Part shown: piece after piece, positions 5,124-63,634 of the stretch | Numbering within the stretch: the first letter of the stretch is position 1 | Layout: each line of letters starts with the position of its first letter | Assembly (NCBI GenBank): GCA_951406725.2 | Contig: OX597819.1 | Coordinates: 100,874,001-100,938,000 of the forward strand | DNA length: 64,000 nucleotides | DNA from: Octopus vulgaris | Lineage: Eukaryota | Direction of reading: 5' to 3' | Notes under the pieces: model-generated | Seen by the model: only the letters and a program-made list of their open reading frames with translations | Database searches by the model: none | Told to the model about the DNA's origin: nothing | Program-made: the position numbers and the translations under genes

Positions 5124-5432
5124 TTTCCTATTTATGTTTGGTGCAGAGACTGCTGCTCCGCCCTTACGTTCTAAGTTGATATGCATCAAATGGAAATTGA
5201 AATTTAGCTTCGGAATAAAGAAGGATAGTGTGGATGTGAGTGTATATCGGTTCGTGTGTCTGGATGTGTGTGTTTGTGAATGCATGTGCATATATGCGTT
5301 TTTGCGTGTGTGTGTGTGGGAGGCGTGCATGTGCTAAGCGAAAACTTATCTGTACATACATAAGCATAATTATGACATGTTTGTATGCATATGTATGCAT
5401 GTGTTTATATATATATGTGTGTGTGTGTATGA

Positions 5433-5463
<31 letters not shown>

Positions 5464-5563
5464 TGACGGGAAGCTTTATGAAAATAGACAAAAGACGAAG
5501 GCAGGTGGGAAACAAACAAACAATTGTATTAGTATGGCGCTCAGGAAATATAAATAAAACAAG

Positions 5564-5601
5564 TCTTTAACGTTTCGAGCCTACGCTCTTCAACAGAAAG
5601 A
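5564..5601 (-). ncRNA. Minimal type I hammerhead ribozyme motif (core CUGUUGA)
   Basis: UCUUU-CUGUUGA-A-GAGC(GUAG)GCUC-GAA-ACGU-U-AAAGA: stem I UCUUU/AAAGA, stem II GAGC/GCUC, palindromic stem III. Confidence 0.7.
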
Positions 5602-5844
5602 TACACAGAGAGAAAAAAAACACAGAAAGAAGGAGAGAAAAAAATGCGTGCAGTAACTAACGAATCAACATGGCGATCTGATTCCGGCCAGAGGTCAAAG
5701 ATCAAACATGAGACGCGAGAGCGAAATAAGGGGAGATAATAGGGTTGATAATAGGGTTGAATGACCAGCTATTAGTGCGTAGGAGAGGTCTGGACGTGTG
5801 TATGTATAGGGTTGGTGTATGTATTAGTATGTACTAGTATGTAT

Positions 5845-5883
<39 letters not shown>

Positions 5884-6444
5884 AGAGAGTATTAGTGCGT
5901 ATGATAGGTCTGGACGTGCGTATGTATGGGGTTGGTGTATGTATTAGTATGTATTAGTATGTATTAGTACGTATTAGTATGTATAAGTGTGTGTGTGTGT
6001 GTATGAGAGAGTATAAGTGCGTATGAGAGGTCTGGACGTGTGTATGTATAGGGTTGGTGTATGTATTAGTATGTATTAGTATGTATTAGTACGTATTAGT
6101 ATGTATTAGTTGGTGTATGTATTAGTATGGCACATCATATATGATGTGATGTGTAAAGTCGTGTGGTGTAGTGTGGAGAGAGGAGAAGAGGGGGAGGGGG
6201 AAGGGAGGAGAGGGGGAGGGGAGGAGGGGGAGAGGGGGAGAGAGAGTAGGGAGAGGAGGAGGGGAGGAAGGAGGAAAGAGGGAGAGGGGGAGAGAGAAGG
6301 GGCGTGAGGGAGCAGAGGGAAGGGGAAGAGGGAAGGAGGGAGGGAGAAAGAGGGAAGAAGGGAAGAGGAGTAGGGCTGAAAGGATGAAGGAATGAAGAAG
6401 TAGGGGTCGGGGGGGAAGGATAGGTGAGGAGGGGGAGAGGGGGG

Positions 6445-6780
6445 TTAGATGAGGAGGGGGGGGGGGTAGTTGAGACCAAATGGCGTATAAGAGCGAAGAG
6501 AGAAGATTAATTCCTGTTCACGGCGCAAACGGGAATCCGGATGGCCTCTGTGTAAGGACAAACCGAACACAGATAGGTGTTGCAAGGTGTGACCGGTGAA
6601 GCGGAAATGGCGTGAGACCGGTGTGTCGTTCGCAAGGTGGATGTCACGAAGGTGTTCCGCGAACCGGTCAGCCAAGCGGCGTCCTGTTTGTCCGATGTAC
6701 AAGGAATGGCAGAGAGAGCAAGAGACGCAATAGATAATATTGCTGGAGGTGCAGGTGAAGGAGTGGATGATGGGATAGGG
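6445..6780 (-). pseudogene. PLE GIY-YIG endonuclease C-terminal fragment
   Basis: [69 protein letters not shown]: IIY/YIG motifs, CxxC, conserved R, H, E and GLN. 5'-truncated at (TA)n. Confidence 0.92.
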
Positions 6781-6879: not shown

Positions 6880-6950
<71 letters not shown>

Positions 6951-6953
<3 letters not shown>

Positions 6954-7291
6954 TACGGAGATGTACTTGCATAGCAAGCGACTTGATCTGAGATCGTGTG
7001 CTGGAATGAAAACAATTGCAGCGTGGAAGGTGTTTATAAGCCATTTAAGAAATACGCAAAACCGTTAGATTCACTTTAACATTTAAATTTGATTTGTCAA
7101 AATATTTTCGTCGCTTTGAGACCGCGACCTGTTCACTGACAAAGCTTCGATGCAGCACAAAGCTTTGTCAGTAAACAGGTCGCGATCTCAAAGCGACGAA
7201 AATATTTTGACAAATTAAATTTAAATGTTGAAATGAATCTAACGGTTTTGTGTGTTTCTTAAATGGCTTATAAACACCTTCCACGCTGCAA
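6951..7291. mobile_element. Fold-back pair of PLE-type termini, each with a G3-C8 hammerhead motif
   Basis: Arms of about 130 bp (7016-7146 and 7159-7291) are near-perfect reverse complements. Same family at 24970-25425. Confidence 0.85.
7093..7143 (-). ncRNA. Hammerhead ribozyme motif, G3-C8 core variant
   Basis: UUUGUCA-GUGAACA-G-GUCGC(9 nt)GCGAC-GAA-AAUAUU-U-UGACAAA: 7-bp stem I, 5-bp stem II, palindromic stem III. Confidence 0.7.
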
Positions 7292-7414
7292 GTGTGTCCT
7301 CATGGGGCTAAAAACTACAGTAGTATCCACCCTTAGGGGTTAGCCATATTGAAATGGCAAAAATACGACACGTTGTGTTACCGCTACTGTATATAACTCA
7401 CATTGATATTTATC

Positions 7415-15869: not shown

Positions 15870-17065
15870 TTATATTAAATCGTCAAGTATGAAATTTGTA
15901 ATAAAGTATATGGCGAACTTTGACAGGTGCTCATTTTGTACCATTGTCATATTTTGACAATCTTTATTTTTTGTTAGAAAGCTGACACATCTATTTCGTT
16001 ATTCTAACTCATTCTGCGCTTTATAGATTATTTATATATCATTTTATTTTTGCTATTTTTGTTTAAAGATGGATAAGTCGGAAATTCGTACAATTTTGAA
16101 ATATGATTTCTTTCTTGGAAAGACAGCATCACAGACAGCTCGAAATATTAATGGAGTAGTTCATTCTAATGTTATTACAAAGCAGACCGTATGGAATTGA
16201 TTTTTAAAATTTCGTTCTAGTAACTTTCACATCTTAAATGAGCAATGCGGTCGTCCAGAAACAAAGGTGGATAATGACAAACTGAAAGCCAGATCCATCT
16301 CAAAGTGCCCGTTATTTAACGTTGTTTTGTGGTGTTAGCAAGCAAACAATATTTGCTCACCTTGTTCAAATCGGTAAAGTGAAAAATTTGAATAACTGGG
16401 TTCTACATGAACTCAATGAAAATCAGAAACAGCAACGTTTGTATGCCTGCATTATGCTACTTTCTCGTCACAAAAAGGAATTATTTTTGAATCGAATTAT
16501 AACATGTGATGAGAAATGGTTCCAATTCAACAACCTTAAATGTTGTGTACAATGGTTGGACAAACAAGCCACCAAAACATGGTCCGAAAAGCAAAATTCC
16601 TCAAAAGAAGTTGATGGTGGTCTGGCGCAGGTGTGATACATTATGATTTCATTAAACCTGGATCATCAATCACGGCCGAAGTATACTGCAGATAACTGGA
16701 CCAAGTGATGCAGAAACTTACAAAAAAACAGCTTAGATTATTCAACAGGTCCACCCCTATTTTATTGCAAGACAACGCCAGAACACACGTCGCAAACGTG
16801 ACATTGGCGAAACTACAGGAGTTGGAGTTGGAAGTTCCCCATCATCCACCATACTCATCTGATCCTGCCTCCACTGACTACCACTTCTAGAATTTGGATA
16901 ACTTTTTAATAGGAAAAAATATAATTCCTACCATACTGTAAAACAGGCCTTCCAAGATTTTATTGACTCTAGATTACCAGGCTTTTACAGTTCCAAGCTG
17001 GAGAAGCTACCACTGAAATAGCAAAAGTGTATGGACAATATGGGTGCATATTTTTGATACATTTA
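15870..17065 (+). mobile_element. Mariner (DD34D-type) transposon with near-full-length transposase pseudogene (ATG at 16069)
   Basis: MDKSEIRTILKYDF..TARNIN (HTH), WVLHEL, IITCDEKW, LLQDNAR, HPPYSSDPASTDYHF; several stops and frameshifts; TIRs not clearly recoverable. Confidence 0.92.
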
Positions 17066-19905: not shown

Positions 19906-20849
19906 TATCCTCCCATCCTCCCCCTAATCATCATCATCATCATCACCATCATCATCATCAAGATGGTGGTCATTACAATCATTGTTATCATTATCATCAA
20001 CCATCAACGGTTTCTCAAACAGTTTCTTCAAATTTGTTCAATTCATTTTATTATTCTTGTATAGAGTTTCAACGCAAGATCGATAGTGACTAAATGCTAC
20101 AGATGATTAATAGCAATTTATAATATGACTGTATTATATCAACAGGTTTCGCAATGATTTGTGAGCGAAAGAGAATAGAAACGTCAGCCGTTTGCAATAT
20201 CTATGCATTTCCGTCTTAATCATATTACTATATGCAAATATACATAATTTCATCGCCTCTTTTGAGGTAAAAATCTCTGTAGAGTCGATTTTGTGTTTCA
20301 TCATTTCATTTTAATGAAATTAAGTAACAACAGTAGAATGGTGGTGCAAAAATTTGATATATCGTATTGCGAACTTTTCTCTGACGTTACTAACATGAAA
20401 TGAATATTAATCATGAAATATGGCAACCTGTATAGAAGAAGAAGAAGAAGAAGAAGAAAAGCTCATAAGGTGCTATAAAAGTAAGATTCAGTTTCTATTT
20501 CTGATTAAATTATTTCAGTTTAGAAAAGCATGAAATTTGCACATTCATTATCACTTGACAACAAATTTATATACGCTTATGGCAAAACCTTACACATCTG
20601 CATCACAGAATCATCCATATCAGTTGCGAATTGCTTTATATATGTACATGATATGTGGCTTAATGGTAAAGGTTTTGGGCTTACAATCGTAATGTTGTGA
20701 GTTCGATTCACAACGGCACTTTGTATCATTTTGTTTAACAAAAGTGAAATAGGAGTGTTAGAAAATATCAACATTTTATTTCATGTTTCTCCAATCTATT
20801 CGGTTGGCAAAAATGAGTTGTACCTGAATTTCATAGAGTCCGCCTTGTT

Positions 20850-23421: not shown

Positions 23422-23566
23422 GGTGCAGGAGTGGCTGTGTGGTAAGTAGCTTGCTTACCAACCACATGGTTCCGGGTTCAGTCCCACTGCGTGGCATTTT
23501 GGACAAGTGTCTTCCACTATAGCCTTGTAAGTGGATTTGGTAGACGGCAACTGAAAGAAGCCAGTC

Positions 23567-24800: not shown

Positions 24801-24969
24801 AAAAAGAAAAAAGAAAAAAAGGAAGAAAAAAAGGAATGTTAAAAAATATCGAGTATGCGTACATAAAGTTTTAAACAGTTGGTTTTCGTTGATTATATAT
24901 TCAGGAATACATTATGTAAATTACATGGAAATTTCCATAAAATTCATAGGGTGTAATTTATTTTTACCA

Positions 24970-25425
24970 TTTAATTTTCATTTGTGATCAAATATTTTCG
25001 TCGCTTTGAAACCGCGACTTGTTCACTGACAAAGCATGGCGCTGTATCTGAGAGAATATCAGTTAGTGCATGATATATATGTGTTTATGTATGTACGTGT
25101 GCATGTATGTACGAATGTATATATGCGTACATGCACACATACATGTATACATGCATACATACATACAAACATATATACATACATAACAACATAATATCAT
25201 GAACTAACTGTAACTCTCAGATGCAGCGCAAAGTTTTGTCAGTGAACAGGTCGCGGTTTCAAAGAGACAAAAATATCTTGACACAAAAGAAAATTAGATG
25301 TTTGAAGTGAAACTAACGGATTTGTGTGTTGTTGAAAGGCTTACAAATATCTTCCATGCTGCAATTGTTTTTGTTCCAGCACACGATCTCGGATTACGTA
25401 ACGTGCTAGGCAAGTACATATCTAT
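24970..25425. mobile_element. Second inverted pair of G3-C8 HHR PLE-type termini, with microsatellite spacer
   Basis: cgtcgctttgaaaccgcgacttgttcactgacaaa versus tttgtcagtgaacaggtcgcggtttcaaagagac. The right arm continues as the reverse complement of 6960-7090. Confidence 0.85.
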
Positions 25426-25564
25426 AATTTATTTGTAAGATCCCTTAATATTATGATTTAATAACTTTATATGTATATAATTTTAAAAAGGCTTTCCCAT
25501 TGTGAGCGGCAGTTGAAATGCTAGAACTGCATAACGAATTATACTCATTCAAGATGGCACGCTC

Positions 25565-25834: not shown

Positions 25835-26790
25835 TTTTTTATCGGAGAGTGTGGGAGTGGGTGTAAGGGATGGGGTGGGTGTGGGGTGGTATGGATAAGG
25901 AAGGTGAGTTTGGATTGAGTAGGGACGGGGTTTCGAGGGAGAGGTGGCAATGAAGGGATAAGGGGAAGGGGGAAGATGGGTAGGAGTGAATAGAAGAGAG
26001 AAGGAGGGTAGGAATGAAGAGAAGTAGTAGTGGAAGCAAGAGAGGAGATGTGAAGGAAGTGGGTGTGAGAGAAAGAGAGTAGAGGGAAGGAGGGTTAGAT
26101 GAAGAGGGAAGGAGAGTTTAGCCCATGTGGCGCAAAGGAGCGAAGAGAGACGATTAATTCCTGTTCACGGCGAAGATGGGAGTCTCGATGGCCCCTGTGC
26201 AAAGAAAATCCGAACACAGACAGGTGTTGCAAAGAGTGACCGGTGGAGCGGAATGGACTGGAGTCGCCGGAAGGCTCGGAGAATAGTACGTTGGAGAGGT
26301 ATGGTGGTGGGGTGGTAGTTGAGGGGAAACAGGAGACGGCGGGGTGGGTGCGGGATGAAAGCTGATGCACGATCTACGGAAGGTGCTCTGGCAAGGGCGG
26401 TGTGGATAGTGGTGAGGGGATATCCACGCAGGATGAAGTGGCGAGACTGAATCTCAGTCATGGTGGTCACTACAGAGCCTGCGTAGACGGAGGAACTGGG
26501 AACAGGTGATGTAAAGCTTGGTGTGTTTAGGGTGGGAGGAGGAGAATTTGAGGTGTGAATGTGATTCGTTGTGTTTGTAGTGGATGGAGGTGGTGAGAGT
26601 GGAGTGATGAATGCTGACCGAAATGTCAAGAAAGGAGACAGAGGTGTCAGACATAGTGCAGGAGAAGTGGAGGGCAGGATGGAAATATTTGGCAAAAGAG
26701 AGGAAGGAGTCTAGATGTTCGCGGGAGAGTGAGCTGCACCAATAGAGTCGTCAATATAACGGCCATATAGTTCGGGAGTGGAACCAGTGC
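25835..26790 (-). mobile_element. PLE remnant: RT catalytic and thumb fragment joined to the endonuclease C-terminus
   Basis: PELYGRYIDDSIG (YIDD at 26747-26758), SVSFLDISV, TSIHYK, SSSHP, SQFLRLRRLCS, F..RGYP, then [33 protein letters not shown], closely related to the 6445 element. Confidence 0.92.
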
Positions 26791-26864
26791 AGTTGAATTA
26801 AGCACTTACGTTGAGGCACCAAATCAGTCCGGTATTGTACGCACAACTCGAAGTTAGTTGAATT

Positions 26865-27070
26865 AAAAGCAAATAAGTAAAAGGGATGTACAGATATTAG
26901 TGCATTACGGCTGTTTCAAGCGGCTCCATTTAATCGCTCAATTCAAAAATTACATCAATTTAAAATAAAGCTGTTTATTTGAAGTTGATGTAATGTTTGC
27001 ATTGATCAGTGCCGCTTGAAACGGCCGTAATAAATTGATATCTGGACACCCTTGTTACTTGTTTCCTTTA
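26865..27070. repeat. Degenerate ~200-bp palindrome with HHR-like remnants
   Basis: aagtaaaagggatgtacagatatt..ttacggctgtttcaagcggc mirrors gccgcttgaaacggccgtaa..gatatctggacacccttgttactt. Confidence 0.75.
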
Positions 27071-27189
27071 TATACAAACAAACAAACACACACACACATG
27101 TATATATATATATATACAGAGAGAGAGAGAGGAGAGAATGACACACACGAACATAGACACTAAATCGCATACATGTATCTATATAAGTC

Positions 27190-31783: not shown

Positions 31784-31814
<31 letters not shown>

Positions 31815-31815
<1 letters not shown>

Positions 31816-31905
31816 CCTTATCAGACGGGTAGTCATGATGGGTATACAGGACTTCGTATATTTTACCCCAGTGTCACTTTGATGGCATGAACTGCCCTCT
31901 CACTC
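31815..31905 (+). mobile_element. Short 3' end of the (TAA)n-associated repeat family
   Basis: Reverse complement of 34843-34930; ends ctctcactc followed by (AAT)n; (AAT)n on both flanks. Confidence 0.85.
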
Positions 31906-31934
31906 AATAATAATAATAATAGTAATAATGATGA

Positions 31935-31975
<41 letters not shown>

Positions 31976-31996
31976 ATAATAGTGATGATGATGATG

Positions 31997-32092
<96 letters not shown>

Positions 32093-32093
32093 T

Positions 32094-32124
<31 letters not shown>

Positions 32125-32535
32125 TTATATTATTACTTTTATTGTATTTTTGTTGTTATTTCAATGCACAGTTTAGATATACATATGGTAGGGGACGTGC
32201 TAAAAAAATGGCAGTGATTATCAATACATAACAAAATACTTAGATAGTAAGTACATTTCTAAGGATATAAGAACGTTTTTTTTTATGTTTTTATCTTCGG
32301 ACTTTCCAGGAACCATGATGCTACTAGGCAACCTTCACCTTTTTGATAATTCTTCATTCATATTTCTTCTTTTTAATATCCGAATTGCAATGTTGAATAT
32401 GAATCACTCTCTTAGTTTTTATATAATGTAAAATGCATATCTTTTTGAGCCCTCATTATGCAGCCTACTATGGCCAAAATTTTGAACTCGTTGATTATTA
32501 TTATTACTACTATTATTATTATTATTATTATTATT

Positions 32536-33071
32536 GAGTGAGAGAGCAGTTCATGCCATCAAAGTGACGAAGCCCAATATACCCATCATGACTACCCGTC
32601 TGATAAGGGTACACCAGGCACATGCATCACAACCATATGTGCGTGACATCGTGATCTCATATCAAGATAAACAGCACATAACCTTGCAGGTGGGGCCCAG
32701 TTAGAATTTTCTTCAGGTTGAGTAGCCCATCCTGCTCAAAAGGTCACTGATCAAGGATGTTTAAGGATGTTGAAAGAACCACCCATGTTTCCACAGGCGA
32801 ATTATTCAAACCCCAAAGAATCCCTCTCAACACATGGCTATGATGCTCCTCCACTACTTCTGCTCGTGATCAGAGATGCACATATCGTCAGCCACTAAGG
32901 GACATGCTCAACTGGTTAAAGTCAAACAACTGACAAACAAATCCGTGGTATTGAGCAGAATATTTGCTGTAGCCCATCTTTTATACCAAGACAAAACAAT
33001 GTACATGATAACACTTCCAATCAGTTAAGATCAGAAGCCATTAGAGCCACTGCCTGGTACTGCATCAGGGC
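32536..33071 (-). mobile_element. (TAA)n-associated non-coding retro-sequence, probably an R4/Dong-type 3' UTR
   Basis: Highly similar to 34843-35305; (TTA)n on both flanks; all copies share the same 3' end. Confidence 0.75.
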
Positions 33072-34725: not shown

Positions 34726-34822
<97 letters not shown>

Positions 34823-34842
34823 GTTATTATTATTATTATCAT

Positions 34843-35304
34843 TGAGTGAGAGAGCAGTTCATGCCATCAAAGTGACACTGGGGTAAAATATACGAAGCCC
34901 AATATACCCATCATGACTACCCGTCTGATAAAGGTACACCAGGCACATGCATCACAACCATATGTGCGCGACATGGTAATCTCATATCAAGATAAACAGC
35001 ACATGACCTTGCAAGTGGGGCCCAGTTAGAATTTTCTTCAGGTTGAGTAGCCCATCCCGCTCAAACGGTCCCTGAATAAGGGTTGTTTAAGGATGTTGAA
35101 AGAACCACCCATGTTTCCAGAGGTGAACTATTCAAACCCCAAAGAATCCCTCTCAACACATGGCTATGATGCTCCCCCACTACTTCTGCTCGTGATCAGA
35201 GATGCACATATCGTCAGCCACTAAGGGACATGCTCAACTGGTTAAGGTCAAACAACTGACAAGCAAATCTGTGGTATTGAGCAGAATATTTGCTGTAGCC
35301 CATC

Positions 35305-35305
<1 letters not shown>
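34843..35305 (-). mobile_element. Second copy of the (TAA)n-associated element
   Basis: Aligns with 32536-32980; (TTA)n on both flanks. Confidence 0.8.
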
Positions 35306-35393
<88 letters not shown>

Positions 35394-39523: not shown

Positions 39524-40751
39524 TATTTATATATATATATATGGAGAGAGACATAGACAAGGGAGAGAGATGGCGCTGTGGAAGAACCAACAAACAAACA
39601 CAGGAAGATGGGGAAGAGAAATGGGGAGGGAGAGAGAGAGTGGATGGAGAATAATATAAAGGAAAATACTAGCTAAAATGCCAAAATGTCCAAAATTGTA
39701 AGCCAGGAGACATATCTTAATTATTCCGTCTATGATTACTACTATTTATTCTCTGCTATACCAGATCATGAATCATATCAAATTTAGAAGCTTTCTTTGT
39801 TTTCTAACATCTTGTTTAAAAAAGCATTGATTTATTTACATATTTTCTATTGAAAACAAATGACTTAAATCTTATTAGAGAAAATAGCAATTTTCTTCGT
39901 TTTGTGACTGCATTTAAATCTCTACAACTACTCAATACTTCAAAAATACTAAGAAAGGATCGATAAATCATTCCACATGCATGACAAAATAAGAACGATG
40001 TCTATGTAGAGCAAATATCAAATGTATATATGCGATTTTTTTGAATGCTCAATTTTCTTACTGGTGGGCCCAAGAATACCAGAAATTCATGTAAGTTTAT
40101 TTTCAATGTATTTGCGTATACGACTTATAGCATACATACTAGTGCAGACATGTAAAATATTATAAACTAAAATATACTGCTTTTCATAACATCGACTGCA
40201 GTGCGACCAAATTTTGTTCATATTCTAGGGAAGTCGCTACTAGTTACATTTGATGTATTTTTTGAACAGTCAAGTGTCAGTTTGCTCGGTAAGAAATAAT
40301 GCATGTTAGATTTCGCAGATCTAGCATCATATTAAGCCTCTGAACTTTTGAGCCCACTTTCGTACGATTGCTAATTACTCTGAGGCAAATACAATGAATT
40401 ATAATTTCCAGCAATATAGCAAAGTAACAAGAGTCTACTTGGCCACAAGATTCTTAATCACACTCCAAAGTTCTATCAAACATTAATCAAGCTTCACTTC
40501 AGAGAATTGCTATCAGATATAAAAATCTCTGCTTCTTCGTATCCCACATTTAATCAAGTATAGATTAACCTAATCATATTGGTTCCAAACTTTGGCGAAA
40601 GGTGCTCAACTGGTACTTATTTTATTGACCTCGAGAGGATGAAAGTCAAAAATCGACCTTGGTTCGTAACTGTAAACAATTTAAATATTTAGCACTCATA
40701 TTAATACCCATGTGCCAGGAGGCACACCCGCCTACTGATACATATATACAT

Positions 40752-41417
40752 ATTCAACTTACGAGGAAAATAAACAAAGTTTGCTTTAGAAGCGTTGAGA
40801 TGTATTGCAAGACACAGAAATAATTTATTTTAAAACGCATAATTACGCTAATATAATAGCATGAATAAGCTAAACTAACCATATATTTCAGAAAAATTCG
40901 TTACCGTCCGGCAACGAGACTCGAACTCACATCCCTGTCATTACACGTCAAGTGCTTTAACCTTTGAACTAAACTGCCCAGCAACGAATTGTTCTGCAAT
41001 TTTAGGTTTTATATATCTAGCTTTATAAGACGCTAAAGTTAAATTCAACTTTCGATGAAAGTAAACAAAGTTTGCTTTAGAAGCGTTGCGTTGTATTGAA
41101 AGATACATAAATTATCTATTCTCAAACGCATGATAATACTAATACAATAGCATGAACAGGATAAACTATTTGTTTACTTTCATCGTATGTTGAATTTATC
41201 GTTCGCGTGTTATAAAGATACATTTTTAAATCCTAAAGTTGCAGAGCATTTCGATGCAAGGCAGTTTAGCTTAAAGGTTAAAGCACTTGGCGCGTAATCA
41301 CAGGGATGTGAGTTTGAGTTTCATGGCTGGCCGGTAACGATTTCTTACTGTAATATATGGGTAGTTTATCCTGTTCATGGTATAGTGTTAGCATTATCAT
41401 GCGTTTGAGAATAAATA

Positions 41418-41422
<5 letters not shown>
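40752..41422. repeat. 291-bp unit containing a tRNA-like segment: about 1.4 direct copies plus one inverted copy
   Basis: Unit starts at 40752 and 41043; inversion junction at 41168/41169; a further fragment lies at about 47905-47975. Confidence 0.85.
40904..40980 (-). pseudogene. tRNA-Thr-like sequence inside a repeat, not a functional tRNA
   Basis: GGCAGTTTAGTTCAAAGGTTAAAGCAC..CGTGTAA..GTGAGTTCGAGTCTCGT: A and B boxes, anticodon TGT (CGT in the + copy at 41260-41332), imperfect stems. Confidence 0.55.
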
Positions 41423-41481
<59 letters not shown>

Positions 41482-41509
41482 ACGCACACACACACATATA
41501 TATATATAT

Positions 41510-41770
41510 GACAGTGTGGTAAATAGCTTGCTTACCAACCACATGGTTACGGGCTCAGTTCCACTGCCTGAAACCTTGCGCAAGTGTTTCCTATTATAGC
41601 CTCGGGTCGACCAAAGCCTTGTGAGGGGATTTGGTAGATGGAAACAGAAAGAAGCCTGTCGCATATACATATATATGTGTGTGTGTTCGTGTATCTGTGT
41701 TTCTCCTCCACCATCGATTGACAACCCATGTTGGTGTGGTTACGTTCCCGCAACTTATCCGGTGGGCAAA
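41510..41770 (+). mobile_element. SINE-A copy, 3'-truncated
   Basis: gtgtggtaaatagcttgcttaccaaccacatgg..tagcctcgggtcgaccaaagccttgtgag. Confidence 0.85.
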
Positions 41771-43495: not shown

Positions 43496-45580
43496 TAGCT
43501 CAAGTTTTCTGTTGGCGGTATTTCTAACTAAAATTAGTGCGTCGTCATCTTCCAATTCAGGGAATTCTTCTTTGAGTAAGTGTAAAAGGTAAATTCTAAG
43601 ATTACACAACTTCTTCAAAACCCAAGGACTAGCCATCACCATTGAAAATGATAACAACTCAGTGAACCTCCTAGACGTTAACTTTAACCCTAATACTTCA
43701 TCTTATCAACCTCACCATAAACCTAACAACAATAGCACATACATACATGCACATAGTAACTATCCTTATAATATTATAAAAACTCTAACTTCTAACATAG
43801 AGAGTAGAATTAAATTATTGTCATCCAATGAGGAAAATTTTCACAACCACAAAGACAACTATAATCTAGCACTTAAGAAGGCAGGATACAAGTATCGAAT
43901 TGAGTACAGCAAAAACAATAGCACTTATTCTAATTAATCCAATAATTATCCATATTACTGAACCCATATCAACTAGTATATTAGAAAACTCTGTCACAAT
44001 TAAATTCTCTCAATAATAATCATCAGCAATACATTAGCAACAGACAAATCCTACAACAATAATAAATATCATAATAATAAACTCTATAAATATGGGTACC
44101 ATAACGATAACCTCACTAATAGAACGAATAGCATTAATTTTACCAACCCACAAATCACTGTTAATAATGTAATCAAACCCAAGTATAAGGACAATATATG
44201 CCGAAAACAAATAACTAAAGATAGAAATATAATATGAACACTACACACTTAAAAATCAAGCTTATCCCACAACATCTCATCCTTCTAACAATTCATATAA
44301 CCGCATAAATCATATTAATAAAGTTAGGAATAATATAGAAAAAAAGAAACCTATACCACGTGTAAGAATAAAATGTCCCACAAAATATAAACCACTACGT
44401 TAATAAAAACAACAATAACGTCATTTGGATCATAATTCCTTTTGCAAAACATCTAAAATCTAATTCTATTAAATCCATTCGAAACAACATAAAAAAAAAA
44501 ATTTAACTCTAAATATGCAAAGATATTTAATAATAACAAAATAATCAGATTTGGATTTTCAGTAGCTCCAAGCCAATATAGTATCATTACTTTATTTAAC
44601 AATTGGAAACTAAACCAATTCTATAATAAAAAAAAAACTCTTTGTAAGACACGTACTAACTTCAATAATTCCATATCTAATAACAACAATTATCAGAATA
44701 AACAGGCCCCAATTACCTCTAATACATATAGACATAACAATAAAGTATCAACTAATAATTCTAATTGTAATTGTAGAAACCCGAACAGTTGTGAGTTAGA
44801 AGGTAACTGTAAAATGAAAGATGTAGTATGTCAAGCAACAATTATTACCCATAATCTCTCTAAATTTATTTACATCGGATGTACACAAAATGCTTTCAAA
44901 TTAAGATTAAATAATCATAGATCATCCTTTAATGACTCTAGAAAAGAAAACAGCACAGGTCTATCCAAAAAGGTTTGGCAACTGAAAAGAAGCAATACAG
45001 GTTACTCGATTTCTTAGAAAATACTTTCTTCTGCTCCACCTTATAGACATAATAACATGATCTTCAAATTATGCGTAGAAGAGAGTTTACAATAGTAAGC
45101 TACCAATTTAATATGAAGAATCTCTATTAGAAATCTAACTTTGGAACCCTACAAAGTAAAGGATGAAATAGAACTCAACCTTTTCTCATATATATATACA
45201 TTTGAGTTCACGACAACATCTTCACTCTTTCTATCGTTACATAATATTCCCCACCCCTTGAATATATACATAGGGTGTGATATCTGGTACAATGCTGCTG
45301 AATTGAAACAGCGTGGATATTGTGATTCGAAAACCTTAACCACTTAACTATTCATAAAGGTATGCAATGGTGTTTTTTAACACCTGATTATATAAGATGA
45401 TACATCAGTCTGAAGTGTAGAGAATGCAGGTATGAAATTTATGTCCACTTTGCATGAACTCACCTCCTAATATTTCAATCGGTTTGGTTTGCACTTATGG
45501 AATCCATGGATCTGTTGATGAATGGTATGGTCGACTGCACACAGAAACTCACATAAGTATATATCTGCTTGTGTGTATGA
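43496..45580 (+). mobile_element. Naiad-like Penelope element pseudogene with an inverted 5' RT segment
   Basis: GLAITIE..VNLLDVNF..YQPHHKPNN..YIHAHSNYP..ALKKAGY (RT), NVIWIIIPF, CNCRNPNSCELEGNC, VVCQA..YIGCT..FKLRLNNHRSSF..STGLSKKVWQLK..LCVEE (GIY-YIG). The CNC-x-C-x-C linker and STxLSKxVW motifs are typical of the Naiad clade. Confidence 0.85.
45509..45565 (+). ncRNA. Degenerate type I hammerhead at the 3' end of the Naiad-like element
   Basis: GAUCUG-UUGAUGA-A..GAA-ACU(CACAUA)AGU-A-UAUAUC; C3 appears changed to U. Confidence 0.5.
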
Positions 45581-46984: not shown

Positions 46985-48299
46985 TATATCCAGATGAGCC
47001 ATCTTTGCTGGCTGATATTTCGTCACATTTGTCTTAGATTACATGTGACACAGCTGTTGTGATTCTTAAATTTTCTAAGTGTGCAGCACTTGTTAAATAT
47101 TAAAACAACATAATTCTTTAGCCTTAAGATATTTTTGCCTTCATACACACCTACTGAATCTAAAGAAGCCAGCCACTCACTGTTTCCTACATCGAAGGCG
47201 ACGAATGTAGCTGACAGCGCGAAAAGTCATCGACAAAAACACAAAGGCCGAAATGCATGCGGGGTCCTCGGTGACCGCTCTATTATTTTTTGTGCTTTTA
47301 ACGCAGTACGTACATAAGCGGAACATACTGGGTGATCAACTGTATCTACATTAATGATGATGCATAGCTGACTATTTTAATTTAATACTGCCTCAATAAA
47401 TATTTCTTAAGATGTTTTAAAATAGGTAATTCAGAAAAAAAAAACTTGTACAAAGTTATCTATTACATAAAATAATTAAATAAAAACTAACTGAAGTGTA
47501 TCTCCAAAATATTCGTGTATACCTGGGGAATCAAACACGAAATAACAATTCACTCCTGATATATAAATTATACTTTTGTCATAGAACTGGTAAAACGGCT
47601 TTTCTGAATCCCAGGCCGCCTGTTCAAATTGAAACCAACAAAATTCAAAAATTATTCAACTCTCCTTACTCACAAATCTTTCCACTGGTAATTAACCTTC
47701 AAATCAATTAAGGCATTAAATCTATGTATTTCTAACACACATCATTACCTCCTCTTGCCTCTTCAAACATCTCCATAACTTGGAAGCTTAGTTGTTTTTC
47801 ATTTCTTACCAATTATTCAGCAAAACGAAACACTTGCCTATATTCTTTTAGGTTGCATAGGTCCAACGATCAATTTGTCAGTTTTGTTTACCCTCTAACA
47901 AATTTATAAATCTTAAAGTTGCAGAGCATTTCGATGCTGGGCAGTTTAGATTAAAGGTTAAAACACTTGGCGCGGGACAGACACTTCAATATGAAAACAG
48001 ATAATTATCCACCGAAAAACACAGTATATGCCAAGGATCTGGCCAACAAATAGGAACCAAAACTACTTTGGTTTTATTAGCCTCCTTAGTCATTCTGGCC
48101 ATAATATCACTGGAAAATTCAACAAAAAAATATATATATCAAACTATAATGGAAATGCATAAGATTTGTTAATGATGGGGTATGAAAATAAGGAATCAGT
48201 CCCCAAAACAATTTGAGAGATAAGAATGGTAAAGAATAACATTAAGGAAAGAAAACAAAATCTATACAAACGTCGACGTATCTACACAGAACATTTTAA

Positions 48300-60366: not shown

Positions 60367-60424
<58 letters not shown>

Positions 60425-60429
<5 letters not shown>

Positions 60430-60612
60430 TAATACATACACCAACCCTATACATACACACGTCCAGACCTCTCATACGCACTTATACTCTCTCCTACACA
60501 CACACACACTTATACATACTAATACGTACTAATACATACTAATACATACTAATACATACACCAACCCTATACATACGCACGTCCAGACCTCTCATACGCA
60601 CTAATACTCTCT

Positions 60613-60655
<43 letters not shown>

Positions 60656-61033
60656 ATACATACTAATACATACTAATACATACACAAACCCTATACATAC
60701 ACACGTCCAGACCTCTCATACGCACTAATAGCTGGTCATTCAACCATATTATCAACCCTATTATCTCCCCTTATTTCGCTCTCGCGTCTCATGTTTGATC
60801 TTTGACCTCTGGCCGAAATCAGATCGCCATGTTGATTCGTTAGTTACTGCACGCATTTTTTTTTCTCTCCTTTCTGTGTTTTTTTTTCTCTCTGTGTATC
60901 TTTCTGTTGAAGAGCGTAGGCTCGAAACGTTTAAGACTTGTTTTATTTATATTTCCTGAGCGTCATACTAATACAATTGTTTGTTTGTTTCCCACCTGCC
61001 TTCGTCTTTTGTCTATTTTCATAAAGCTTCCCG

Positions 61034-61034
<1 letters not shown>
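60425..61034 (+). mobile_element. PLE 3' UTR/terminus copy with HHR at 60899-60936, flanked by (TA)n
   Basis: Near-identical reverse complement of 5464-6075, including the three ~120-bp subrepeats. Confidence 0.92.
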
Positions 61035-61096
<62 letters not shown>

Positions 61097-61097
<1 letters not shown>

Positions 61098-61731
61098 TAG
61101 CAGTATCGCCCGGCGTTGCTCGGGTTTGTAAGGGAAATAACTATATAAGCATATTTAGAGAGTTATAGCCAAAACATAGCAAAAAATGCATTAAAAATGG
61201 AAAAATATGATGGTAATTTTTTTTTTAAATCGTTGACTCATCGTAGACATTTTTAGAGAGTTACTTCCCTTATATAATAGCGAAAAAATGCATTAAAATG
61301 GAATAAAAACGATGGTAAATTTTTTTTAAATCGTAGACTCATGTAGACGCTTTCTTAGCCATTTCTGTTTTGGTGTCTTCAAGCCATGAAGTCGTTGTTC
61401 TAAAAGAACACTGGTCTCCTTGACAACGCATTACGACGTTGATTTCCTTACACTCCCTTCCCCACAGGTGCAGGTGTGAGCGTGGACGCCAACTCCGCCG
61501 CCATCGACACACGAAAAATTATGCATTAAAATGGAATAAAAAATGATGTTAAATTATTTTTAAAATCGTAGACTCATCGTAGACGCGCGCTAATATTCAG
61601 ACGGGCTCGATATGAATCACGACTATAAGCTACCCGAATTTGGTTAAACTGTACCGCAAAATGTGGGAGTAGTTAGGAATCTAAATCGAAGGGGACAGAC
61701 ACTCACACAACTACAGTTTTATATATATAGA
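61097..61731 (-). mobile_element. Complete non-autonomous Helitron
   Basis: Minus strand reads A|TC..., then subterminal hairpin acccgagcaacgccgggc, then ...CTAG|T. Three internal subrepeats (tgcattaaaatgg..aaatcgt.gactcat.gtagac). No TSD. Confidence 0.88.
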
Positions 61732-63027: not shown

Positions 63028-63362
63028 TTTTGTTTTTGGATTTGGTTTGCAAGATTCTTTATGCGAGTTCGTATGTTGAAGCATATTCTATTGTTTCTGG
63101 GGAAAGTCATTTTCTTTTTGTGCCTTATAATTTAAACCACTCAGCGGTAAAATTTCCTCTTGTTCTTATTTTTATTTTCCTAAAATTTTCGTTGCGTCTT
63201 GCAACTATTTCAAAAGTCAAGACTATTGAAAATATTGTCAGTAGTAAAAGGTTGCATGATGCAACGAAAATTTTAGAAAATACAAATGAGAAATAAGTGG
63301 AAATTTTACCGGTGAGTGTCTTAAATTATAAGGCACAAAAAGAAAATGACTATCCCCAGACA
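63028..63362. mobile_element. Fold-back pair of PLE-type termini with degenerate HHR motifs
   Basis: 63096-63218 mirrors about 63240-63360; each arm has GTTGC..GCAAC-GAAAATTTTAG; left end abuts (TA)n. Confidence 0.8.
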
Positions 63363-63384
63363 TAAAAGAACAAGCCACTACACA

Positions 63385-63562
63385 CATTTTTCCCTTCTTT
63401 TTTCTCTCCTTGTCTCTCTCCTTGTTTTCTGTGTCCCTTTCTGTAGAAGAGCGTAGGCTCGAAACGTAAAAGACTTTTTCTACTCCTAAGCGTTATACTA
63501 ATACATCTGTTGTTTTGTACACCACCCGTCTTCGACTTTTTTTGTTTTTTTGCGTAAACACT

Positions 63563-63565
<3 letters not shown>
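63385..63565 (+). mobile_element. PLE terminus with HHR (63437-63472, core CUGUAGA), followed by (TA)n
   Basis: cttt-CTGTAGA-a-GAGC(gtag)GCTC-GAAACGTA-aaag; tail homologous to but diverged from 60937-61034. Confidence 0.8.

Positions 63566-63634
<69 letters not shown>

Follow-up and report, generated by a model that had tools for sequence, protein, structure and literature searches.

Layout of the repeat unit

The window analysed here is a 64,000-nt stretch of the Octopus vulgaris genome (contig OX597819.1), AT-rich animal DNA of 26–42% GC in which the tandem repeats (150 rows) are mostly microsatellites. Between 40752 and 41421/41429 lies a non-coding repeat unit without an open-reading frame, which self-BLAST, repeat and profile alignments resolve, in plus-strand order, into a complete copy, a partial copy in tandem and an inverted arm. 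We number the unit with a period of 291, such that u1 falls at 40752 and again at 41043.

40752..41042, minus (the tRNA-sense strand, 3′ end at 40752): copy 1, whole 291-nt unit, u1–u291
41043..41168, minus: copy 2, partial unit u1–u126 in tandem, pseudo-LTR-like
41163..41172, no strand: inversion junction, u126|u27
41169..41195, plus: inverted arm, first part, u27 to u1
41196..41421, plus: inverted arm, second part, u291 to about u67
47902..47974, plus: separate fragment, u262 to u190

The direct repeat (40752–40877 and 41043–41168) is 126 nt long with 106 of 126 positions identical (84%), and at a spacing of 291 nt it amounts to 1.43 units, copy 2 being upstream of copy 1 on the tRNA-sense strand. 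The inverted arm was recovered by self-BLAST at E 1e-123 (178 nt at 83% and 85 nt at 79% complementarity), it shares 188 of 233 positions with copy 1 and 60 of 68 with copy 2, to which its first part is identical at 25 of 27 positions, and its alignment continues to u59 at 41429, the last ~8 nt merging with a (TC)29 run. The arm spans the u291|u1 unit junction, which the direct tandem also contains, and the locus forms a long palindrome with a 99-nt spacer. At the inversion junction u126|u27 there is no in-register microhomology, one 4-nt match lying 2 nt out of register. A reading made from the sequence alone had described a 291-bp unit in partial tandem plus inversion with a further fragment at 47905–47975, and both descriptions hold: the fragment, at 47902–47974, matches the inverted arm at 67 of 73 positions and consists of 38 nt of leader and the 5′ half of a tRNA-derived segment, with no direct repeat of at least 4 nt in the flanks examined. 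No further copies were detected in the window by profile search (the next match, unrelated, has E 1.7), and searches of prokaryotic, plasmid and phage sets, which are distinct from eukaryote genomes, gave 0 matches to the unit in GTDB genomes, none in phages and one chance-level match (E 6e-3) in the plasmid set. The break points differ between copies (u1, u27, u59–67, u126, u190 and u262), as expected from the circular permutation that the sequence-only reading had proposed, but a head-to-tail multimer explains them equally well.

A tRNA-derived segment inside the unit

40907..40978, minus: tRNA-derived segment of copy 1 (18.2 bits and E 0.8 with the Rfam tRNA model, over 40909–40978)
40971–40961, minus: A box of copy 1
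40926–40918, minus: B box of copy 1, perfect
41260..41332, plus: tRNA-derived segment of the inverted arm (20.9 bits and E 0.14 with the same model)
41267–41277, plus: A box of the inverted arm
41312–41320, plus: B box of the inverted arm, one mismatch
40867..41023, minus: imperfect inverted repeat, ~45 nt each side, enclosing the tRNA segment

Both segments fall below the Rfam tRNA gathering score of 29 (E-values over 4227 families) and ARAGORN found no tRNA genes (0). The A and B boxes are 45 nt apart, and 74% of the cloverleaf cells are paired overall, compared with 36–50% for slid controls, the T arm reaching 100%, the D arm 87.5%, the acceptor stem 64% (6 of 7 pairs in the inverted arm) and the anticodon stem 50%. 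The segment begins 64 nt inside the unit, which bears out its earlier placement mid-unit rather than at the 5′ end, and a leader of 38–64 nt upstream of it is kept in 3 of 3 tRNA-containing copies, none of which begins at the tRNA 5′ end. Of the label tRNA-Thr-like the first half stands, the segment being tRNA-derived with A and B boxes, but ‘Thr’ is positional, being taken from the CGT and TGT triplets at the anticodon position.

A TATA-like leader is found about 30–37 nt upstream of the segment, a T5 tract ~13 nt downstream of the copy 1 tRNA, at the site of a tRNA gene terminator, and an interrupted T tract at the corresponding place in the inverted arm. These features could also be read as the relics of a tRNA gene that brought its leader and terminator along, was multiplied into a 291-bp array and has since decayed, with the template supplied by Pol II read-through and the tRNA as a passenger. 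The leader, the T5 tract and perfect B box of copy 1 and the acceptor stem of the inverted arm all suit such an origin, which we nevertheless regard as very unlikely, as the anticodon stem is only half paired, position 33 is G in both full copies, the segments are below the Rfam threshold and missed by ARAGORN, and the T tracts are not common between copies. On the tRNA-sense strand, 0 of 4 tracts of T4 or longer are common to two copies, and the inverted arm contains one where 3.8 are expected (p 0.022 by dinucleotide shuffle, 0.11 by mononucleotide shuffle); the opposite strand is likewise without a shared T4 tract, so that the T-tract signal is not strand-specific.

The inverted repeat around the segment, which the sequence-only reading had overlooked, has core arms at 40877–40902 and 40983–41008 and extends the acceptor stem. 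On the tRNA-sense strand of copy 1 this domain, a region chosen after inspection, folds far more stably than its shuffles (z −3.7, 0/200), with z −1.7 on the other strand, whilst the equivalent domain in the inverted arm does not (z +0.7); 26 of 33 pairs are kept in the inverted arm, with one compensatory double change. With two sequences, selection on the RNA, correction of a palindrome and a nested MITE cannot be told apart as the source of this ~45-nt repeat. Whole-unit folding was no better than shuffles (z −1.0, −0.2, +1.1 and +0.7), and consensus folds of two sequences cannot reveal covariation.

Elsewhere in the window, a perfect A/B-box pair at tRNA spacing at 20656 (plus) is probably another SINE head, and further pairs occur at 23432 (plus) and 55818 (minus). 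A similar pair at 45350 (minus), near a Penelope-like element (PLE) remnant, was discarded as not tRNA-like by Rfam.

Ends and flanks of the element

40752..40817, minus: one-sided ‘tail’, u1 to u58–66, at the left outer end only
40738..40751, no strand: left flank, short imperfect TA-rich stretch, from sequence
41421..41479, no strand: right flank, (TC)29 microsatellite

The inverted arm has no such tail sequence at its outer end, where the right end is blurred by the (TC)n run; the outer ends are unequal by 58–66 nt, so there are no paired TIRs. Flanks of (TA) and (TC)n had been proposed, and on the right this is correct, but the left flank has only the short TA-rich stretch and no long (TA)n. 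In this window a random break point falls within 5 nt of a run end ~9% of the time. As had been noticed from the letters, no A-tail is present near either end of the element (40752–41429), nor is there a simple-repeat tail. No TSD was found, the longest direct repeat near both ends being a 9-nt microsatellite word 73 nt past the right end, and no TG..CA ends, PBS or PPT are visible by eye in the sequence. A TRIM was rejected for want of LTRs with TG..CA ends, PBS, PPT or TSD, and a MITE or fold-back transposon because the outer ends differ by 58–66 nt with no TSD. Pieces belonging to two abundant SINE-like families lie on either side of the element, at 40602–40663 (five other copies in the window) and 41509–41770 (eight other matching stretches); they may be octopus OR-type SINEs.

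Penelope-like remnants and other fold-backs in the window

5403–6780, minus, and 60422–61097, plus: PLE 3′ end pair, 95% identical, with hammerheads at 5596 and 60904
26098–26860, minus: broken PLE RT-thumb/linker/endonuclease remnant, related to the element at 6448
43593–45100, plus: second, different PLE remnant with Asn-rich linker, Cys-rich motif and GIY-YIG
6948–7295 and 24963–25432: second non-coding two-copy family, head-to-head inverted arms of variable extent

The remnants show that PLE enzymes have been at work in this region. The first of the two PLE 3′ ends alone retains a GIY-YIG open-reading frame remnant (6448–6780), which matches the C-terminus of an 891-aa RVT_1 + GIY-YIG protein (E 1e-22). 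This RT + GIY-YIG relative maps to 6469–6771, 26116–26747 (26313–26747 at E 2e-16) and 43629–43856 (E 9e-4), and a second GIY-YIG remnant is present at 44493–45014; the Atlas matches for two ORF remnants are eukaryotic (Cnidaria, Mollusca, Arthropoda and Chordata). The remnant at 43593–45100, which presumably resembles the Hydra clade, has no hammerhead with one or fewer core mismatches in its 3′ region. Near-canonical minimal type I hammerheads, with one core mismatch each, occur in the window at 5596 (minus), 27919 (plus), 60904 (plus) and 63441 (plus), all four 99–106 nt from a TA run and all missed by Rfam; in three of the four U replaces A6, perhaps as a core variant of this lineage, perhaps through decay that they share. 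The paired 3′ ends have 122–124 bp tandem repeats in their 3′ region and a (TA)n target ~105 nt downstream of the hammerhead. Just past the (TA)n that ends the 60422–61097 piece, at 61150–61586, are imperfect tandem repeats of ~100 bp.

Besides the element the window contains four other fold-backs. The two-copy family at 6948–7295 and 24963–25432 has a one-sided extension of ~64 nt and adjoins (TA)n in its first copy, and its arms show by eye a GC hairpin and, after it, GAAA within a stem of 6 bp, with no CUGANGA box; a second family of the same layout means that the fold-back architecture is not unique to the 291-nt unit. Single-copy fold-backs are found at 63086–63370 (80% self-complementary) and 26858–27077 (73%), each adjoining a PLE remnant and a microsatellite. 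Other repeats in the window include a 92%-identical direct duplication rich in (TTA)n (32494–32984 and 34801–35310) with an inverted related stretch at 31813–32135, and an ORF remnant at 16286–16633 (plus) resembling a mariner-type transposase by eye, with no relevant Pfam match.

No sequence link between the unit and these PLEs emerged: when a profile was built from the four PLE 3′ ends of the window, its best score anywhere on the element was −2.9 bits. In 40 pairwise tests of the unit against PLE 3′ ends, copy 2 against 63372–63568 beat 300 of 300 shuffles, a result counted twice through overlapping queries, and two further alignments reached p about 0.03 through a shared 13-mer; given the profile score, and as copy 1 and the inverted arm gave nothing, we rejected this 3′ homology as chance.

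A hammerhead-like motif on the opposite strand

41046..41093 (equivalent 40755–40802), plus: hammerhead-like motif of minimal type I topology, judged not a ribozyme

In copy 2, the strand opposite the tRNA holds a motif in the minimal type I register, with 5 of 6 pairs in stem I, an 8-bp stem II, a palindromic CG loop 3 and UH, a better fit than the sequence-only reading had recognised. Taken at face value it would make the element a retrozyme, in which a variant dimeric hammerhead cuts multimers into ~291-nt monomers that are circularised and reinserted by PLE enzymes. The register of the copy 2 stems speaks for this, as do the unit size and low GC, which fit non-LTR retrozymes (PMC7229834), and the long stem II and palindromic 15.2–16.2, traits of PLE min-HHRs in the account of PMC4209133. 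That same account includes the catalytic boxes and the G10.1–C11.1 pair among minimal-hammerhead traits and gives U3–A8 as a core variant. The octopus motif departs from the core at C3, U4 and A15.1 and has an insertion of 2 nt before G12/GAA: the CUGANGA box fails at positions 3 and 4 in 3 of 3 copies, both complete copies have GAAG and the 2-nt insertion instead of GAAA directly after stem II, and the G10.1–C11.1 pair abutting the core is absent. Copy 1 gave no match in the same relaxed hammerhead scan, leaving the motif in one of two complete copies, and the third, in the inverted arm, is cut at u27.

Under criteria tuned to the motif only 4 of 1500 shuffles were equally good, but less tuned nulls gave 21, 185 and 683 of 1500, and nine sites that satisfy similarly relaxed criteria are present in the window. 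Variants of the hammerhead with a short stem III were reportedly described by Lunse et al. in 2017, a study that may list further ones. A covariance model of the window's four PLE hammerheads scored the candidate region at 9.7 bits (E 8.7, rank 18 of 19), on a different hairpin, and its own training sites, by construction, at 53–67 bits; the model is narrow, so this result shows non-membership of that family rather than inactivity. Rfam at gathering scores gave 0 matches in the whole window and, given a true minimal hammerhead as a control, failed to detect that as well; the lack of an Rfam match to the candidate is therefore uninformative about hammerheads, and the whole-window E-value scan was dominated by microsatellite-miRNA matches (among the best 150 of 387).

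The local fold around the motif has z −1.7 in copy 2 and +1.2 in copy 1, and circular folds of the unit, at z −1.1 to +0.1, show no marked self-pairing, unlike retrozymes. The motif is antisense to the A and B boxes and to the polarity deduced from the inversion, whereas the PLE hammerhead at 5596 is on the strand of its ORF, and the tRNA strand has no hammerhead motif with three or fewer core mismatches. The hammerhead echo pointed out by the sequence-only reading is weak, with a core broken at three positions and interrupted by 2 nt, and the motif is probably incidental or a dead relic.

Unequal divergence of the copies

Over u68–126 (59 sites), copy 1 carries 10 private changes, copy 2 two and the inverted arm three. 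Over three blocks, private changes number 12 against 3 for copy 1 and copy 2 (p 0.035) and 20 against 7 for copy 1 and the arm (p 0.019), whilst copy 2 and the arm differ at 7 of 86 sites and copy 1 and the arm at 46 of 251 (Fisher p 0.026); the tests overlap in sites and are not independent. Copy 1 is thus the sequence outlier, at p about 0.02–0.04. The distant fragment at 47902–47974 sides with the arm (8 against 3 private changes), a difference that on its own is not significant.

A single monomeric circle predicts equidistant copies, and the outlying copy 1 argues against it. Together with the broken core and the antisense motif, this makes a retrozyme improbable, and the earlier comparison with retrozymes and Sm-alpha, including its monomeric circles of ~290 nt, was not sustained. 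A local fold-back, for its part, predicts that the arm is a copy of copy 1; the arm is nearer to copy 2, and a local fold-back was rejected. The pattern fits a multimer of unlike units, and it also fits a new insertion beside an older copy, PLEs tending to insert into or beside existing copies according to PMC6765202. Gene conversion acting between the near arms could produce a similar asymmetry, although the distant fragment, too, sides with the arm.

The same comparison bears on an origin at the DNA level, either as a fold-back/MITE or Helentron-type non-autonomous element with internal repeats or through template switching during local replication, by which a tandem already present was duplicated and inverted. 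The long palindrome with its spacer and the other four fold-backs would agree with this, a nested MITE could account for the ~45-nt inverted repeat that encloses the tRNA, and an 8-bp hairpin 14 nt from the left end is loosely like a Helitron 3′ end. However, the arm resembles copy 1 less than it does copy 2 or the distant fragment, and the outer ends are unequal, with no paired TIRs and no TSD. The check for Helitron/Helentron features yielded that AT-rich hairpin only, which is not significant and is broken in copy 1, the copies being too few to define termini. On balance we think a DNA-level origin rather unlikely.

A non-autonomous element probably mobilised by PLEs

We propose, at a probability of roughly 55%, that the element is non-autonomous, mobilised by PLEs and equipped with an internal tRNA-derived Pol III promoter, a proposal based on one compound insertion and one fragment, all from this window. 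The partial tandem, the inverted arm, the one-sided tail and the microsatellite target without TSD match the published anatomy of PLE insertions as set out in PMC8557442: there, a 5′-truncated copy precedes the full one, an inverted 5′-truncated copy often adjoins the 5′ end, a tail of 30–40 bp marks one end, and microsatellite targets hide TSDs. Together with the PLE remnants nearby and the 0 of 3 copies starting at the tRNA, this supports the earlier view of a PLE-mobilised element rather than an ordinary SINE, for which most copies would be expected to start at the tRNA 5′ end with TSDs; neither such starts (0/3) nor a TSD were found.

In the proposed mechanism, a master array of head-to-tail, non-identical units would be transcribed, most simply by Pol III, starting at the boxes of an upstream unit and reading into the next, a read-through by which the 64-nt leader before the promoter would be propagated. 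A PLE protein would nick both strands of an AT-rich or microsatellite target and two cDNAs would be primed at different sites, u1 and about u59–67, the difference between the two sites giving the one-sided tail. Both cDNAs would cross the u291|u1 junction and stop at u126 and u27, and joining of these ends, end to end, would create the inversion, with self-cleavage unnecessary. That the truncated ends meet at u126|u27 with the 3′ ends outward suggests the tRNA-sense strand as template and u1 to u58–66 as the tail, a polarity inferred from the inversion alone. PMC11167929 reports that purified PLE protein cuts and extends both strands, that the PLE reverse transcriptase starts at two sites whose difference equals the tail, and that hammerhead cleavage is not needed by the protein in vitro.

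Several observations count against a PLE origin: no sequence link to the PLE ends of the window was found, the tail is longer than the cited 30–40 bp, the junction is without in-register microhomology and contact with microsatellites is common in the window. The 3′ side of the fragment at 47902–47974 breaks off within the tRNA, which is not typical of TPRT. The T5 after the copy 1 tRNA and the interrupted T tract in the arm speak against Pol III read-through, and read-through of the unit array is uncertain.

A tandem tRNA-derived SINE or satellite offers another route, its multimeric transcript being inserted by a conventional LINE with twin priming and the inversion being a one-off. Twin priming is an L1 mechanism. 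On an RNA of at least 2.1 units it would produce a junction of this geometry, and it predicts that one and the same unit was copied into copy 2 and the inverted arm, as observed. The element has neither poly(A) nor TSD, though, a cDNA overlap of 60–67 nt is long for L1 twin priming, and similar fold-backs recur in an unrelated family of the same window. Even with SINEs and LINEs dominating octopus-type genomes (PMC13282606, PMC8967140), we consider this route unlikely.

Returning to the element as a PLE-mobilised parasite, its milder form, a Pol III-driven PLE parasite without a ribozyme that is not yet described, is a possibility we hold tentatively. That such a multimeric tRNA-promoter parasite, in effect a SINE counterpart carried by PLEs, also has an active dimeric hammerhead variant on its antisense strand, beyond current descriptors, with both polarities processed viroid-fashion, appears highly improbable.

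Comparison with known elements

Non-autonomous PLEs (pLTR-only elements, MRC1 and other Chlamys elements) resemble the octopus element in their partial tandem and adjacent inverted truncated copy, and also in a one-sided tail, a microsatellite target, the absence of a discernible TSD and the absence of an ORF, on the descriptions given in PMC8557442. Three features of such elements are found here, namely a pseudo-LTR partial tandem, an adjacent inverted truncated copy and an AT-rich/microsatellite target without discernible TSD. In contrast to those elements, the octopus element has no 3′ similarity to the PLE ends of the window, its tail is 58–66 nt rather than 30–40 bp, and it has a tRNA-derived Pol III promoter, which the portion of PMC8557442 available does not mention for the Chlamys elements.

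Schistosoma Sm-alpha and Sj-alpha share with it a tandem unit of ~300 nt, an internal Pol III promoter and a tandem arrangement needed to copy the whole unit, as related in PMC6765202 and PMC8490949; in the same accounts the Sm-alpha transcript carries, behind its promoter, an active type I hammerhead of canonical form, whereas the octopus motif is non-canonical and antisense. Metazoan non-LTR retrozymes are alike in unit size, low GC, tandem copies and presumed PLE dependence, but are defined, in PMC7229834 and bioRxiv 10.64898/2026.07.22.740005, by a type I hammerhead per unit, which the octopus unit does not have. The TRIMp3 elements Helenus, Ajax and Cassandra likewise have a Pol III promoter derived from a small RNA inside a non-autonomous retroelement and not at its 5′ end; they are described in PMC10886601 as LTR elements with PBS, PPT and TSD, of which the octopus element has none by eye, and its inversion crosses the repeat boundary. 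Lastly, tRNA-derived SINEs (SINE2, including the octopus families OK, OR1 and OR2, which were compared by name only) have tRNA-derived A and B boxes and a size of 100–700 nt; unlike them the element has a 64-nt leader before the tRNA, no A-rich or simple-repeat tail, no TSD, and a tandem with inversion. On the features tested, the element falls outside the retrozymes, ordinary SINEs, TRIMs and MITEs.

Novelty and significance

No description of a tRNA-containing non-autonomous PLE or of a cephalopod retrozyme was found in the full-text literature searched, a body of sources apart from Repbase, Dfam and subscription papers, and this extends to the available text of PMC3531059, PMC4824008, PMC4758252, PMC8967140 and PMC11662667. 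The only comparable PLE parasite with a tRNA/Pol III promoter found in the full-text literature searched is the hammerhead-bearing Sm-alpha. According to PMC13282606, recently active O. vulgaris insertions include 893 unclassified SINE and 31 Penelope-like families, and the present family may already be catalogued among O. vulgaris repeats, for example as an ‘unclassified SINE’, in which case the gain would be one of reclassification. SINEs live off LINEs, and TRIMp3 elements off LTR elements; a PLE parasite with a tRNA promoter would complete the set as its third case. Short, and with fixed starts and many inversion points, such an element would also offer a compact test of the two-site, two-strand model of PLE priming (PMC11167929), and of whether PLE-driven spread can do without hammerheads.
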